A stretch of DNA of 64,000 bases from Defluviitaleaceae bacterium. Lineage in GTDB: Bacteria; Bacillota; Clostridia; Lachnospirales; WRAX01. The first letter of the stretch is position 1. Each line of letters starts with the position of its first letter. Location of the stretch: the NCBI GenBank assembly GCA_009779935.1, contig WRAX01000001.1, positions 37,758 through 101,757 on the forward strand. Reading direction: 5' to 3'. The notes below the pieces were generated by a model. That model ran no database searches. It was not told the DNA's origin and saw only the letters and a program-made list of their open reading frames with translations. The position numbers and the translations under genes are program-made. Positions 10,014-37,801 of this stretch are shown piece after piece.

Positions 10014-10927
10014 ATACAGACCGAATTAAAAACATAATGATAGTGCTTTTGTCTGCTGCAATTGTAGCTTTTTCTGTTTTAATTGTGATGGAGGGGGACA
10101 GGTATACCCTAACCGTTGCAATGGAAGAGAATGTGGCAGCAGTGCTCGATAGGAACAACATGAGCATATCAACAGAAATTGTACGGGATTTTAACCCACG
10201 CCGCCAGCTTAGTTTAGAATTTTATGATTACGATTTGGAAGGGATTGCTGCACGCTTTTTTGGTGATGCCGTACCCCCAAGGGAATTTATGCAAAACACA
10301 ATTGAATATTATTGCGAGCATACAGGCAAAATTATGACCCATAACAACCGAAGCGGCTCCATATTTTTCGGTGTTCCAAACGGCATGTTTGTCGGTGTTT
10401 GCGGGGGTGATTTTTATAAAAATGCCGCATCTGCTGAAGCCCTTGCCCGCACCTTTGTGGAAGAGGTTTTGGGTGCGGATGTAATGCCCTTACATTCCAC
10501 CATACTAACAAGGCAAGGTAATTATGTTATAACATTTTTTGAAGGTTATGGGGATTATTTGATGTTTAACAACCAAATCCGTGTACGCATAACTGACATG
10601 GGTGTTGTTTATGTTTTCTACTCCCGCATGCAAAGCCATGGTTTTGCGGGATATGCCCAACCCATTTTTTCGGCGGATGAAATGCTTATTACCTTGCTTG
10701 CCCACCTGCGGGCAGAAGGTTATGAGAAGCAGGACCATATAAGCGTTATAGACATGCAATTGGTTTATGCTTTTGATGCCCACGCAGGCATATCCCGTGG
10801 TGTGCCCGCATATTTTTTCACCATATCCATCGGTACGGAGGTTTGGATTTATTACCGTGTTTTTAATGCCCATACAGGCCGCCCCATACATGGCGAAACC
10901 ACCTTAATCAGCGGGCCGCATTTATAA
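10010..10927 (+). CDS. Membrane-anchored extracytoplasmic protein (YycI-like, tentative)
   Basis: ATGA start/stop overlap with the upstream gene. The N-terminus (RIKNIMIVLLSAAIVAFSVLIV) resembles YycI-type anchors. Confidence 0.35.
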   Translation: MNTDRIKNIMIVLLSAAIVAFSVLIVMEGDRYTLTVAMEENVAAVLDRNNMSISTEIVRDFNPRRQLSLEFYDYDLEGIAARFFGDAVPPREFMQNTIEYYCEHTGKIMTHNNRSGSIFFGVPNGMFVGVCGGDFYKNAASAEALARTFVEEVLGADVMPLHSTILTRQGNYVITFFEGYGDYLMFNNQIRVRITDMGVVYVFYSRMQSHGFAGYAQPIFSADEMLITLLAHLRAEGYEKQDHISVIDMQLVYAFDAHAGISRGVPAYFFTISIGTEVWIYYRVFNAHTGRPIHGETTLISGPHL

Positions 10928-26111: not shown

Positions 26112-26605
26112 TTAGGATATATACTTTCGCATATTCTTTAACGCATTTTTCTCCAAACGGCTTACTTGTGCTTGGCTTATGCCTATTTCATCCGCCACCT
26201 CCATTTGGGTTTTGCCTTCAAAAAAGCGTAGGTTGATAATATGCCTTTCCCGCTCGCCCAGCCTTTTCATGGCTTCTGAAAGGGAGATGTTTTCCAGCCA
26301 CATGGCATCGGTATTTTTGTCATCACTTAGCTGGTCCATAACAAAAAGTGCATCTGTGCCGTCGTTATAAACGGGTTCGAAAAGTGATACGGGCTCCTGT
26401 ATGGCATCAAGGGCAAAAACCACTTCTTGCCGGGAAACGCCCAACTCCACAGCAATTTCTTCGATGGTGGGTTCTTTGCTGTTTTGGTTTATCAGCCGCT
26501 CCTTAGCTTGCAGGGCTTTGTAGGCAATGTCCCTTAAACTTCGGCTTACCCTGATGGAATTATTGTCCCTTAAATATCGCCTAATTTCACCTATTATCAT
26601 TGGTA
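26112..26605 (-). CDS. sigG: sigG 3' segment (regions 2.4-4 of sporulation sigma factor G), separated from its 5' segment
   Basis: PMIIGEIRRYLRDNNSIRVSRSLRDIAYKAL...GISQAQVSRLEK is near-identical to my recollection of B. subtilis SigG from residue ~100. The MAFI- start in the ORF track is element-derived. Confidence 0.85.
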
Positions 26606-26629: not shown

Positions 26630-28000
26630 TTATAGCCCTTCAAACTTATAAAACACTTCAACATTCTCATCATCAATCACAATTTTTTCCACACACGAGC
26701 GCACGATGTTGCGTTGCTCATGCTTTGTCATATACTCCCAAGTTTCTTCAAGGGTTTCCAATGTTTTTTTCACACTTTCAATTTTATCGGCAATCACATT
26801 GCGTTCCTGCTCCCTTGTAATTTGGGCTCCCATATTGGCAAGTTGCTTTTGCTGCTCTTTTATGGTGTTTATCAAAATTTCGTCACCATTGTCTGCATAA
26901 AGGTTGTACAGACGTTTAATTTTTTTGGCAACCTCATCATATCTACCCTGCAACACTTCCAGCACCGATTGGGTTGCAGCCCGCACATTGTCCACCTGCT
27001 TTTGTTTTATGGAAAAAGAGAATAAATCACTAATTATAACGCTTTCCACATCACTGGCCCACAGCCTTTTGTTGTTGCAATGGGGGTCTTTTACCAAATG
27101 GGGCTTGCTTGTATCTTGGGAATAGCATACGATTTTACAATCATGCTTGCCCCATTTTTGATAGCGCATTTTAGCCCCGCATTTACCACAAAGCATTAGC
27201 CCGGTAAACAGATAGTTGCTGTGGGTTGCACGGTTAATGGACCGCTCCGCCATATAATCCATGGCTTTTTGATAAACATCTAAGCTGATAAGCGGTTCGT
27301 GCTTGCCCAAAAACTCTTCATCATTATAAATTATGTAACCGGCGTTGGATTTGCGCTCCAAAATCTGTATGGCAAGCTTTTCGTATTTAAGCCCCAGGGT
27401 TTGGGCAATCTTGCCGGTGGAATAACCTTCCAAATACAGGTCATAAATTTTGCGCACTGTTTCCGCATCTTTATTTGGCACAAGTATGCCCTGCCCCTTA
27501 TCATAATCATAACCAAAGGGTATGCGGCCGCCGCCGGGCCAAAGCCCTGCTTTTACACGCTCTCTCATACCCATACGGGTGCGCTCTCTTATATTTTCCC
27601 GCTCCAATTGGGCAAATGCGGATAAAATGCCCAGCATAAGCCGCCCAAGGGGGGTAGATGTGTCCATACTTTCCTGCGTGGAAATGAAGTCCACGCCATG
27701 GGGGTTAAACACATCTTCAATCAAATACAATGTGTCCTTTTGGCTGCGGGAAAGCCTGTCCAATTTATAAACCAGCACCGTGCTGATGGTTTTATTTTTC
27801 ACATCAGCAATCATCCTTTGCAATTCCGGCCTATCCATATTGCTGCCGCTGTATCCGCCGTCAATATAATAATCAAAATCTTTAATACCCTTGGAAGCGC
27901 AGTGTCCTGCAAGCATCTGCTTTTGCGCTTCTATGGAGTAACCTTCCTCCCGCTGGGCATCTGTGGAAACCCTGATATAAATCGCTGCTTTGTGCTGCAT
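26630..28000 (-). CDS. Large serine recombinase (SpoIVCA/CcrB-like)
   Basis: 456 aa with AAIYIRVSTDAQ (catalytic Ser), a resolvase domain, a recombinase domain, a Cys-rich zinc ribbon (CGKCGAKM...C) and a coiled-coil. Confidence 0.92.
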   Translation of the reverse strand: MQHKAAIYIRVSTDAQREEGYSIEAQKQMLAGHCASKGIKDFDYYIDGGYSGSNMDRPELQRMIADVKNKTISTVLVYKLDRLSRSQKDTLYLIEDVFNPHGVDFISTQESMDTSTPLGRLMLGILSAFAQLERENIRERTRMGMRERVKAGLWPGGGRIPFGYDYDKGQGILVPNKDAETVRKIYDLYLEGYSTGKIAQTLGLKYEKLAIQILERKSNAGYIIYNDEEFLGKHEPLISLDVYQKAMDYMAERSINRATHSNYLFTGLMLCGKCGAKMRYQKWGKHDCKIVCYSQDTSKPHLVKDPHCNNKRLWASDVESVIISDLFSFSIKQKQVDNVRAATQSVLEVLQGRYDEVAKKIKRLYNLYADNGDEILINTIKEQQKQLANMGAQITREQERNVIADKIESVKKTLETLEETWEYMTKHEQRNIVRSCVEKIVIDDENVEVFYKFEGL

Positions 28001-28011
28001 AAAGCACCCCC

Positions 28012-28203
28012 TTAGCCATTAGCTTCATCATAACACAAAGTGGTGATGTTTTCAACGGCATTTTTTACCAATGTATCTTGGGGAGAAAGTCGCACATTAA
28101 CTGCTTGAATGGCTTCCAAAACCACATTGCTGTCCAGTATATATTTTTCCAAATCAGCCTTATTCACCTTTTTTCCATTAATGTATCTGGTTACACTTAG
28201 CAT
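28012..28203 (-). CDS. 63-aa hypothetical protein upstream of the recombinase
   Basis: The start at 28203 follows AAGGAG. Its stop lies 11 nt before the recombinase ATG. The longer ORF-track version lacks an RBS. Confidence 0.45.
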   Translation of the reverse strand: MLSVTRYINGKKVNKADLEKYILDSNVVLEAIQAVNVRLSPQDTLVKNAVENITTLCYDEANG

Positions 28204-28300
28204 GGCAACGCTCCTTTTTTGCATTGTTGCCATCAAATGCGGTGCGTAATCCCGGGTTACAAAAAACACCGTGTACATGCGCCACGGTGCCAAGGATATA

Positions 28301-28371
28301 CAGGGGTAGAGAGAATCGAACTCCCACTAAAGGTTTTGGAGACCTCTGTCATGCCACTTGACCATACCCCT
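28301..28371 (-). tRNA. tRNA-Trp (anticodon CCA)
   Basis: The reverse complement AGGGGTATGGTCAAGTGGCATGACAGAGGTCTCCAAAACCTTTAGTGGGAGTTCGATTCTCTCTACCCCTG folds as a cloverleaf. It has a 7-bp acceptor stem, the anticodon loop CUCCAAA and the T-loop TTCGATT. No CCA end is encoded. Confidence 0.9.
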
Positions 28372-28414
28372 AAATAAGATGCAGGGCGCACAATGTGCGC
28401 CGCTACAACCAATA

Positions 28415-28488
28415 TGCTGGTACCGAGATTCGAACTCGGGAGCCTCTCCCTTACCAAGGGAGCGCTCTACCTACTGAGCTATACCAGC
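28415..28488 (-). tRNA. tRNA-Thr (anticodon GGT)
   Basis: The reverse complement GCTGGTATAGCTCAGTAGGTAGAGCGCTCCCTTGGTAAGGGAGAGGCTCCCGAGTTCGAATCTCGGTACCAGCA folds as a canonical cloverleaf with the anticodon loop TTGGTAA. Confidence 0.92.
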
Positions 28489-28554
28489 AAATATTTCAAC
28501 AAAAGATATTCTACCACGCCAAAGGGCATTTGTCAACAAAAATTTTTGGGAAAT

Positions 28555-29112
28555 TTATATTTGGGGACAGGAAGGGTTTGACAGCTTTTTTATCAGGTCA
28601 TCATGGGTGGTTAAGTTGATTTGGGTGCCTTTGGCTGCGGTTAGGTTGCAGTGTTTTAACCAATCACGCCATTTTTGTATACCAAACATGGTGGATATGG
28701 TTTGCCACGATGGTGTGCCTTGTGTCCTTACGGCATTGTGTTGCCGTGCTGATGGGGGGCGGTTTTTTATGTAGTCGTCTATAAATTGCGCTTGCCAGTG
28801 CTCCTTGGTTTGATGGGAGTAAGGGCGGGAAGGGGATGGTTGGTTTTGGGGGTAGTGTTTTTCCAAAAAGTCTTTTAAGTTTATTCCAAAGCGCAGTTTT
28901 ATGACGGTGTGGGGCGGCAAGGTTTTTTTCTTAAATTCTGCTGTGCGCGGCGGGCGGCCATTGTCTATGATAAACTGATTTATGGTATCGAAGATGGTTT
29001 GCTCGCTCCAGCCCATAAAGGGCATGTGGTCAAGGATTTCTTGTATTTTTTCTTTTGTGCCTTGGTCTGTCACCACATCCAATGCTGCCTGTAAGGCTTG
29101 TTTTCGTGTCAT
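28555..29112 (-). CDS. Hypothetical protein with two homing-endonuclease-associated-repeat-like (HEARO-like) modules
   Basis: 185 aa. It has two repeats of the pattern W..Q.I...I..F....GR.P...EF......P....I...FG....W/FL. AGGAGG lies 7 nt upstream, directly after the premature stop of the sigG 5' fragment. Confidence 0.5.
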   Translation of the reverse strand: MTRKQALQAALDVVTDQGTKEKIQEILDHMPFMGWSEQTIFDTINQFIIDNGRPPRTAEFKKKTLPPHTVIKLRFGINLKDFLEKHYPQNQPSPSRPYSHQTKEHWQAQFIDDYIKNRPPSARQHNAVRTQGTPSWQTISTMFGIQKWRDWLKHCNLTAAKGTQINLTTHDDLIKKLSNPSCPQI

Positions 29113-29149
29113 TTAGCATCCTCCTATTATCAATTTCGCTTAATGACAT

Positions 29150-29450
29150 TCATTGGTACAGCATATGTGGAAAATTTTACGCCATGGCTGGTGTCAAAAT
29201 TGTCTATAGCTTTAATAAGGCCAATGCAGCCCACTTGGAATATATCATCAATATTTTCGCCACGGTTGTTGAAGCGTTGGATAACGCTAAGTACAAGGCG
29301 CAGGTTGCCGTATATATATTCCCTGCGGGCATGTTTACAGCCCTGCAAAATCTTTGCAAAAAGTATATCTTTTTCCGCTTGTTTTAGAATAGGAAGTTTG
29401 GCAGTGTTTACGCCGCAAATTTCCACCTTGGTGCGCTGTGTGCCGCTCAT
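29150..29450 (-). CDS. sigG: sigG 5' segment (regions 1.2-2.3). As it stands, the ORF runs 6 codons into the element and stops at 29130.
   Basis: MSGTQRTKVEICGVNTAKLPILK...GNLRLVLSVIQRFNNRGENIDDIFQVGCIGLIKAIDNFDTSHGVKFSTYAVPM matches the SigG N-terminal ~100 aa. Confidence 0.85.
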
Positions 29451-29484
29451 ATATGGTCGCCCGCTCTCTGCAATAATATAAAGA

Positions 29485-29513
29485 TATTTTTTCCAAGGCA
29501 GGCAAGTTTATAC
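29485..29513 (-). promoter_or_regulatory. Sigma-F-like forespore promoter upstream of sigG (GTATA-N14-GGAAAAAATA)
   Basis: On the minus strand, GTATA lies at 29513-29509 and GGAAAAAATA at 29494-29485. This fits the GYATA / GGnnAnAnTR pattern as I recall it. Confidence 0.45.
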
Positions 29514-37429: not shown

Positions 37430-37801
37430 ATGGGATTTTTTATCTTTCTTATAATTGTAGCTGTCGCAGGCGCAATCATAAGCAAGGTAGTTAACAAGCA
37501 AAAAGAGGACGCTTTAAGAAATGAAATAGTTGGAGAATGGGAAGACGATTATGGGAATATAATCAAGTTTACCCATGGTACATATAGTGGCGGTTTAACC
37601 GACCCACCACATGGCAGTTATACCGTATTAGGTAAGGGAAAAGTCTCTCTTGTACCATCAGGGGCTTCGTATTCAACAGATGGCCCTTCATTTATGACTG
37701 TTTGCTTAGTCCAAATAAATGGAAGCCGTATAGCTCTCGATGTTATGGCTAAAAGCGGGCATCGCAGGGTAGTATGTGTAAGAACCGATAACAATCAATA
37801 A
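37430..37801 (+). CDS. Small membrane-anchored hypothetical protein
   Basis: The start at 37430 follows GGGAGGA. It has an N-terminal TM (FFIFLIIVAVAGAII) and a soluble beta-rich domain. Confidence 0.5.
   Translation: MGFFIFLIIVAVAGAIISKVVNKQKEDALRNEIVGEWEDDYGNIIKFTHGTYSGGLTDPPHGSYTVLGKGKVSLVPSGASYSTDGPSFMTVCLVQINGSRIALDVMAKSGHRRVVCVRTDNNQ

Follow-up and report, generated by a model that had tools for sequence, protein, structure and literature searches.

Architecture of serine-recombinase elements that split the forespore sigma factor gene sigG, and candidates for the factor that directs their recombination

The window analysed here is a 64,000-nt stretch of contig WRAX01000001.1 (forward-strand positions 37,758 to 101,757; assembly GCA_009779935.1) from a Defluviitaleaceae bacterium. 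On its minus strand, a 2,553-bp element carrying a large serine recombinase (LSR) interrupts the sporulation sigma factor gene sigG at the Pro codon of ...YAVP/MIIGE... (the slash marks the junction). The order on this strand is a methyltransferase gene, the sigG promoter, the sigG 5′ fragment (sigG′), a 185-aa gene that we call X, tRNA-Thr, tRNA-Trp, a terminator, a 63-aa open reading frame (ORF; orf63), the LSR and the 3′ part of sigG (Table 1). The region 28555-29513 thus comprises a sigma-F-type sigG promoter, the 5′ third of sigG, the left attachment site (attL) and X.

An identical 9-bp core, TACCAATGA, lies at both junctions of the element and is flanked by symmetric arms. In the reconstructed attP, about 17 of 20 arm positions are symmetric around the CC of the Pro codon, and the arm TTTCGTCTAATGGCATTCAT matches the arm TTTCGCTTAATGACATTCAT (reverse complement). 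The two sigG fragments are co-oriented, and core-to-core joining gives an in-frame canonical SigG, ...KFSTYAVP/MIIGEIRRYLRDNN...; the junction sequences after excision would be ...GCTGTACCAATGATAATAGG... for attB and ...GGCATTCATACCAATGAATGTCATT... for attP. SigG residues 1-99 of sigG′ are genuine and end ...FSTYAVP at the Pro codon (29156-29154), after which seven element-encoded codons run to a TGA at 29132-29130, where the original prediction had placed the sigG′ stop. The LSR matched the PHROG 95 integrase profile (E = 2.5e-120) and the TP901-1 integrase 3bvp (E = 7.5e-39), and its match to NCBIfam recomb_XisF was distant (E = 1.9e-39; 136 bits against 375 required). The element therefore resembles the described sporulation-gene intervening elements in splitting a co-oriented gene and in carrying at its edge an LSR with a short core and inverted-repeat arms. 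It departs from them in its target, which is not a mother-cell gene but sigG, as judged by the sequence and by the sigma-F-type promoter.

Table 1. Features of the sigG element and its flanks in the window
Feature	Positions	Strand	Evidence or remark
Methyltransferase gene, upstream of sigG	terminator 29574-29552	minus	
sigG promoter, forespore sigma-F-type, GTATA-N14-GGAAAAAATA	29485-29513	minus	sequence and conservation in relatives
sigG 5′ fragment (sigG′), 106-codon ORF	29450-29130	minus	Pfam Sigma70_r2, E = 1.6e-14
attL core TACCAATGA	29150-29158	minus	central dinucleotide CC 29156-29155; X-proximal arm ATGAATGTCATTAAGCGAAA to about 29133
Shine-Dalgarno AGGAGG of X	29120-29125	minus	7 nt ahead of ATG
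Gene X, 185 aa	28555-29112	minus	ATG 29112-29110; all-helical, two HNH_repeat-like modules, invariant N-terminus MTRKQA
sigma-70 promoter of tRNA genes, TTGACA-17-TAGAAT, TG-extended	28508-28536	minus	11/12 consensus positions
tRNA-Thr (GGT), element cargo	28414-28489	minus	ARAGORN; Rfam tRNA 70.7 bits
tRNA-Trp (CCA), element cargo	28300-28372	minus	ARAGORN; Rfam tRNA 62.8 bits
Intrinsic-terminator-like hairpin CACCGTG-N9-CACGGTG + TTTTTT	28261-28289	minus	read from sequence
orf63, 63-aa protein, predicted beta-hairpin + helices	28012-28203	minus	12 nt ahead of recombinase start
sigma-70-like promoter TTGAAA-17-TATGAT, TG-extended	28027-28055	minus	within orf63 3′ end; probable recombinase promoter
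LSR, 456 aa, TP901-1/phiFC1-like	26630-28000	minus	Pfam Resolvase, Recombinase, Zn_ribbon_recom
attR core TACCAATGA	26597-26605	minus	CC 26603-26602; recombinase-proximal arm TTTCGTCTAATGGCATTCAT
sigG 3′ fragment, regions 2.4-4, start MIIGEIRRYL	26112-26600	minus	Pfam Sigma70_r3, Sigma70_r4

X follows sigG′ closely. The sigG promoter consists of GTATA (29513-29509) and GGAAAAAATA (29494-29485), an exact match to the sigma-F consensus applied here (GYATA-N14/15-GGnnAnAHTR), in agreement with the motif that had been proposed from the letters. L087 and L060, the closest two relatives, share the bipartite motif without change, and 25 of 33 related loci have the strict -10 element (GGnnAnAHTR) ahead of sigG, Oscillospiraceae for instance as GTATCAAATTTCCCG...GGGAAATACTA; the match goes beyond chance. 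The gene sigG is forespore-specific, and in Clostridioides difficile its mapped promoters are of the sigma-F type (PMC3789822). Given this conserved sigma-F-like motif and the same promoter type in C. difficile, forespore transcription of sigG′-X in the window is plausible and can reasonably be expected. The 17 nt between the sigG′ stop and the X ATG contain the AGGAGG, and a scan showed no minus-strand terminator-like site from 29552 to 28290, both as the original prediction had it. The sole hairpin ahead of the X ATG is weak (-3.7 kcal/mol, z = -0.6) and was dropped as a terminator candidate, having no U-tract and the Shine-Dalgarno sequence in its loop. A transcript from the sigG promoter is predicted to cross X and both tRNA genes and to end at the 28261 terminator, a hairpin that the scan overlooked because its loop exceeds 8 nt; this terminator would stop the transcript short of orf63 and the recombinase. 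The claim that X is expressed with sigG in the integrated state is therefore credible for this element, but the same is impossible in the inverted elements described below.

We count about 140 loci with sigG elements, spread over Defluviitaleaceae, Oscillospiraceae, Acutalibacteraceae and related groups sampled from the gut of termites and humans and from the rumen; a single scan of species-representative genomes yielded 56 X loci, all of them in uncultured Defluviitaleaceae, Oscillospiraceae, Acutalibacteraceae or Ruminococcaceae. The elements occur in two orientations. In A-type loci (about 31, including the window), the sigG 5′ fragment lies upstream of X on the same strand, while in B-type loci, which make up about 20 of the 51 with X, the element has the inverse orientation and the sigG 3′ fragment lies upstream of X on the opposite strand. 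Complete B-type elements were found in L014 and as the 21-kb element of L141/L142, and the B-type sigG halves are intact. Among 80 recombinase-centred metagenome loci, with recombinase identities down to about 34%, about 18 were of A-type against 11 of B-type, and the ratio was unchanged whether or not loci were chosen for X. At least nine orientation switches could be placed on a neighbour-joining tree of 49 X proteins. Since X is divergent from the sigG 3′ fragment in B-type loci, the sigG promoter is unusable for X there, and visual inspection of the 42-nt att arm and of the antisense strand of the sigG 3′ fragment showed no promoter for X. Capture of the sigG promoter by X is therefore not a conserved property of the family, and B-type elements, with both sigG halves intact, have no means of relying on it.

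The A-type junction consists of the recombinase-side arm, CC and the sigG 3′ part, and the B-type junction of the same arm, GG and the reverse-complemented sigG 5′ part, indicating that the central dinucleotide, CC or GG, decides the polarity of the element. The central dinucleotide reportedly governs integration polarity in Bxb1 and phiC31, as Ghosh et al. (2003) and Smith et al. (2004) are said to have found. The polarity switch in those systems was engineered, whereas the sigG elements display recurrent natural CC/GG variation between otherwise symmetric arms. Some loci show further arrangements. In the B-type locus L014, a GC-rich hairpin (10634-10695) separates the recombinase stop from the inverted sigG 5′ fragment; its T-run is on the sigG-promoter strand, so that it would block antisense reading into the recombinase, and other B-type loci lack it. 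Two diverged sigG 3′ fragment/X junctions, L046 and L050, lie about 23 kb apart on contig JAGAKF010000007.1 and share 85% nucleotide identity over 1,063 bp, with the Met after the Pro changed to Leu in one copy, which suggests tandem or nested elements or a host flank captured by an element. In L092 (3286-5240), a recombinase of the clade and a small ORF are convergent with the 3′ end of the sigG 3′ fragment, an arrangement that is neither A nor B.

The original prediction also stated that X loses its promoter upon excision. In the excised circle, X instead falls downstream of the recombinase across attP: the recombinase stop, attP and the X start lie within about 100 nt (59-103 nt) on one strand, with no terminator between them. 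For the element of the window, X would start 14 + 45 nt past the recombinase stop. Measured from the core, the recombinase stop is at 24 nt and the X ATG at 37 nt. L054, a 130-kb contig with lysin and tail genes (CALCUH010000010.1; binned as Bacteroidales and probably a misbinned phage genome), has small ORF, recombinase, attP and X in this un-integrated order, and X lies at the very end of the viral contigs L057 and L058, beside tail-fibre genes. These layouts place X in the att/integrase module of sigG-targeting temperate phages and of their stripped or cargo-swapped descendants. In the free form, X would be co-transcribed with the integrase, which is the opposite of a gene that is off after excision.

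We then considered elements that lack X. Three complete sigG-splitting elements, with both junctions in view, carry no X: L069 (2.6 kb, A-type, symmetric arms), L076 (B-type, symmetric outer arms) and L087 (8.4 kb, with oligopeptide-transporter cargo). The host of L087 belongs to the same genus as that of the window, and the two are 92-97% identical in SigG and 84% identical in the recombinase. A recombination directionality factor (RDF) should be present wherever its recombinase clade must excise, and X is not. This distribution suggests that elements can do without X, which would be an accessory protein rather than the main factor setting direction. X had been put forward as the RDF; the inverted elements, the X-less elements, the layout of the circle and the presence of orf63 all speak against that assignment, and we regard it as unlikely.

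The original prediction had listed the 63-aa ORF just upstream of the recombinase as a second RDF candidate, and its position was confirmed; of the two genes, it is the better placed. A search with a hidden Markov model (HMM) placed a family of small ORFs that includes orf63 directly upstream of the LSR in 33 loci, including some with about 30%-identical LSRs that are not at sigG. Members follow the pattern hRhFxxGxxV...DLxxYxI....VDRIVNxV, and the family holds at least 86 proteins, none of them named. Similar small peptides, recognised at the level of this pattern, occupy the same position in L069, L072, L076 and L102, of which L069 and L076 lack X. Thus, orf63 is small, adjacent to the integrase and co-occurs with the recombinase clade, as would be expected of an RDF. 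Its predicted model (pLDDT 68) has a beta-hairpin followed by helices; it had no Pfam, NCBIfam or PHROG match and no Foldseek match in the PDB. In Bacillus subtilis, skr (64 aa) overlaps spoIVCA, and the order in SPbeta is attL-sprB-sprA-attR (PMC6957869). As a near-universal partner of the recombinase clade, encoded at the position that the established RDFs Skr and SprB have in their own systems, orf63 is a stronger RDF candidate than X, and our analysis makes it more likely that orf63, rather than X, sets the direction of recombination.

We also inspected how the small ORF and the recombinase might be expressed. A strong sigma-70 promoter lies between the small ORF and the LSR in L054, L004 and L014, and in L054 this promoter, together with a terminator between the two genes, makes them separate transcription units. 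In the window, the sigma-70-like promoter in the 3′ end of orf63 probably drives the recombinase constitutively. Ahead of the small ORFs, the motif G[GT]NNANAHT occurs in 17 of 25 cases against about 3 expected, with patterns that were relaxed and partly post-hoc, and several of these ORFs have GYATA or GAATA 14-15 nt 5′ of the motif. Upstream of orf63 in the window lies GATTA-N15-GGCAACAATG, whose -10-like GGCAACAATG (28231-28222) is a weak match. These motifs are suggestive only of a forespore promoter for orf63.

A single-sequence search found 74 homologues of X and a profile search about 290, none of them named. The family is restricted to one spot, namely sigG-targeting LSR elements, prophages and their remnants. 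In 26 of 30 A-type loci, the X ATG follows the Pro codon at 40-43 nt, most often 42, and in about 10 of about 31 A-type loci sigG′ reads on into X in frame without a stop. Sigma70_r2 is the only Pfam domain ever joined to X homologues, via SigG′-X fusion ORFs, and about a quarter of the homologues are annotated as 289-416-aa proteins bearing it because gene callers ran SigG′ straight into X. The fusions (P0012, P0015, P0026, P0046, P0061, P0069, P0075-P0078 and others) are made up of SigG 1-99, a 14-residue att-encoded linker and X, and the att arm read in the SigG frame gives AI(M/I/N)GWRK, which resembles the native MIIGEIRR. Many 289-416-aa "sigma-70 region 2" proteins in catalogues are thus SigG′-X read-through fusions, which is of help to annotation. 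We do not claim selection for such fusions: the in-frame 42-nt spacing is the commonest (15/27), yet a third of these contain a stop.

The AlphaFold2 model of X (pLDDT 86.9) has an N-terminal helical hairpin and two four-helix modules. Two endonuclease-associated repeats had been proposed for this protein; the two modules are indeed similar to each other, but the match to Pfam HNH_repeat (PF18780; 22.3 bits, E = 1.7e-4) is under the 26-bit gathering cut-off, and the name HEARO, which had been used for the repeats, is that of an RNA and not of the HNH protein repeat. HNH_repeat is the sole recurring Pfam match, found in 18 of 47 X family members at E < 0.01, none of them with a score shown to attain the cut-off. 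Sequence-profile and structure searches of PDB, BFVD, PHROG and NCBIfam gave no match for X, and neither X nor orf63 had a tblastn match in 50,697 phage genomes. X is an orphan helical protein, and the weak HNH_repeat similarity suggests that it may bind DNA. In other loci (L008, L009, L011, L015, L023, L056 and others), the 35 nt ahead of the X ATG form a hairpin with covarying stems and the Shine-Dalgarno sequence in the loop. Over 41 distinct sequences, its mean z was -2.5, and 61% had z < -2; positions 29113-29147 of the window are a weak counterpart. The 5′ arm of this hairpin is the outer att-arm motif (GTCGAAA-like), and the 3′ arm thus repeats the recombinase-side outer motif, so that the hairpin may be a structure in the RNA or a third motif bound by the recombinase.

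The sigG element shares parts of its layout with several known systems. Skin (B. subtilis sigK; SpoIVCA and Skr), a prophage-derived element, likewise interrupts a gene for a sporulation sigma factor. In both, the LSR lies at the element edge immediately 5′ of the 3′ gene fragment, and just ahead of the recombinase gene, or overlapping it, is an ORF of about 64 aa (PMC6957869; bioRxiv 2022.02.25.481979), a likeness that is positional. Skin-type elements, like sigG elements, have no common genes besides the recombinase. The target of the sigG element, unlike that of skin, acts in the forespore, whose chromosome is the germline, and nothing like X is present at the far end of skin. SPbeta in spsM (SprA and SprB) and phi3T in kamA have the order attL-rdf-int-attR with a small RDF beside a constitutive LSR, as the sigG element appears to have, and in both prophages it is the RDF promoter, not the integrase promoter, that times excision. 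They differ in that SprB has its own sigma-E/K and stress-inducible promoters and in that the target genes are mother-cell genes; the sigG-element recombinase is TP901-1-like, not SprA-like. The gin element in gerE of Bacillus cereus (GirC and GirX) is, as here, a small non-phage intervening element with a 9-bp core, and its LSR and small RDF suffice for excision, the RDF blocking integration in vitro (PMC5595907). It differs in its mother-cell target, in having no promoter-capture geometry and in having no X-like gene. The fdxN element of Anabaena (XisF with XisH and XisI) is likewise excised in development by an LSR with at least two accessory proteins. However, the heterocyst in which it is excised is terminally differentiated, the comparisons made showed no sequence relationship of the accessory proteins, and the sigG-element recombinase is not a member of the XisF equivalog.

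Listeria phi10403S in comK and SpyCIM1 in mutL offer another likeness: the split gene is restored by excision, and a non-lytic episome later reintegrates (PMC13492144). A sigG element resident in the germline would need a life cycle of this kind, reversible active lysogeny. The two systems differ from the sigG element in being non-developmental and in having no spore stage, and for a 2.5-kb element without replication functions reintegration is what we infer. Between the window and L087, both element-bearing, dN/dS was 0.022/2.6 for the sigG 5′ half and 0.056/1.70 for the 3′ half, the dS of the recombinase also being 1.70. Both halves are thus under strong purifying selection (omega about 0.01-0.03), and both are intact in more than 80 loci. 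These values are consistent with long co-inheritance of the element and a split yet functional sigG.

We propose an account to which we give an even chance of being right. In this account, the recombinase would be made constitutively from its own sigma-70 promoter, and the 63-aa protein encoded just upstream would be the direction switch, a counterpart of Skr and SprB. Excision would take place in the forespore, the non-replicating circle would persist in the non-dividing forespore or spore, and it would reintegrate through the recombinase alone. The circle must persist and reintegrate in such a scheme for the element to be maintained in a germline gene under strong purifying selection. X would be a dispensable att-adjacent accessory, transcribed by whatever crosses att: in an integrated A-type element this would be the sigG promoter, and in the excised or phage state the recombinase promoter reading through attP, while X would probably be untranscribed in integrated B-type elements. 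As a guess, X may act in an episomal or establishment phase, for example by aiding reintegration or silencing the episome. It is an improbable extension, in our estimate, that X is a state-reading accessory of a new kind for the serine integrase, with tandem HNH-repeat-like DNA-binding modules, that is made only when transcription crosses att and biases or times the return of the episome, and that in A-type elements it might join orf63 in excision. Several observations weigh against our account. The strict sigma-F bipartite consensus was found ahead of none of the 25 small ORFs, and their -10-like motif lies only 5-7 nt from the Shine-Dalgarno sequence. The X-side arm of L087 is poorly symmetric, and X-less elements may have been recently disabled. 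X is highly conserved with an invariant N-terminus and is kept in the smallest element, that of the window, from which nearly all else has been lost, which argues that it does something important for the elements that keep it, and large DNA-binding RDFs are known (Bxb1 gp47 and phiC31 gp3; PMC12286644). Finally, dS values of 1.7-2.6 are near saturation.

We weighed three other explanations. If X were the directionality or timing factor, sigma-F would fire the sigG promoter, X and the recombinase would excise the element, and excision would sever X from its promoter. The location of X directly after sigG′, with a strong Shine-Dalgarno sequence and no terminator, fits such a role, as do the conserved sigG promoter, the A-type layout of about 60% of loci with its frequent in-frame fusions, and the fact that a minimal element of 2.5 kb still has X. 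The recombinase and X form a module around attP, and RDF folds are diverse, some RDFs being larger DNA-binding proteins. However, about 40% of the elements are inverted, with at least 9 flips, so that X cannot be read from the sigG promoter although the sigG halves are intact; the A:B ratio is the same with or without selection of loci for X; and complete elements with symmetric att arms lack X. In the circle, X lies 59-103 nt behind the recombinase, co-oriented and with no terminator, where an RDF would block reintegration, and orf63 is near-universal and better placed. We therefore hold a role of X as directionality or timing factor to be unlikely.

It is also doubtful, though less so, that X is unrelated to recombination and is a lysogenic-conversion or regulatory gene, such as a DNA-binding regulator of forespore or phage genes, situated at the prophage end that host transcription can reach. 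X does lie at the end of true prophages beside tail-fibre genes (L057), has weak similarity to a DNA-binding module (HNH_repeat) and is dispensable in some elements, and fusions with SigG 1-99 would tether it to the RNA polymerase core in some hosts. Yet tiny non-phage remnants with nothing to regulate keep X (the window and L014), and its fixed 42-nt distance from the crossover and its co-orientation with the recombinase in both orientations tie it to the att/recombinase module, not to cargo. The insertion might finally be dead, with sigG inactivated in hosts that no longer sporulate, no excision, and a functionless juxtaposition of X and the promoter. All hosts are uncultured metagenome-assembled genomes (MAGs), which would leave room for such a case, but the more than 80 loci with intact sigG halves and the omega of 0.01-0.03 between two element-bearing lineages make it very improbable, as do the conservation of recombinase, att arms and sigG promoter and the targeting of one sigG codon by recombinases down to about 34% identity. 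Among these readings, we favour orf63 as the direction switch, with excision and reintegration in the forespore.

Outside the att/recombinase module, the elements vary in content. Ortholog clustering showed that nothing recurs but X, the small ORF and the LSR, and the cargo includes restriction-modification systems, GmrSD, Fic and transporters. The larger elements L141/L142 (GCA_054266135.1, JAZLPR010000020.1, about 36.4-57.6 kb) and L059 carry defence cargo: type I restriction-modification, Fic, T5orf172, N6/N4 methylase, and EcoRI-like methylase with GmrSD. Such cargo in large elements makes sigG an integration hotspot for defence islands in these bacteria. Many MAG contigs stop within X or a few hundred bases past it (L005, L010, L012, L017, L020, L032, L037, L042, L051, L053 and L056), as would be expected if cargo varies among strains or if integrated and excised forms coexist. 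In the window, an Rfam search returned no RNA family besides the two tRNAs, and the tRNA-Thr(GGT) and tRNA-Trp(CCA) cargo with its promoter (28300-28536) is absent from all other elements examined. If this tRNA-Trp were the sole copy of the genome, loss of the element would be lethal, which would constitute a retention mechanism.

To our knowledge, the described sporulation-gene intervening elements (in sigK, spoIVFB, spoVR, spsM, gerE, kamA and yabG) all lie in mother-cell genes, and they survive because they are excised only from a genome that is discarded. The forespore chromosome, in contrast, is the inherited germline. A 2026 review gives only mother-cell cases as "irreversible active lysogeny", and the literature searched contained no description of an element that interrupts sigG or another forespore gene. 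The sigG elements break the mother-cell rule yet are widespread; purifying selection on an interrupted forespore gene implies excision followed by reintegration, and the elements thus call for a reversible switch in the spore's own chromosome. If this is true, the 2.5-kb element would be a very small natural switch cassette, consisting of one integrase, one or two accessory proteins and two sites of about 50 bp.

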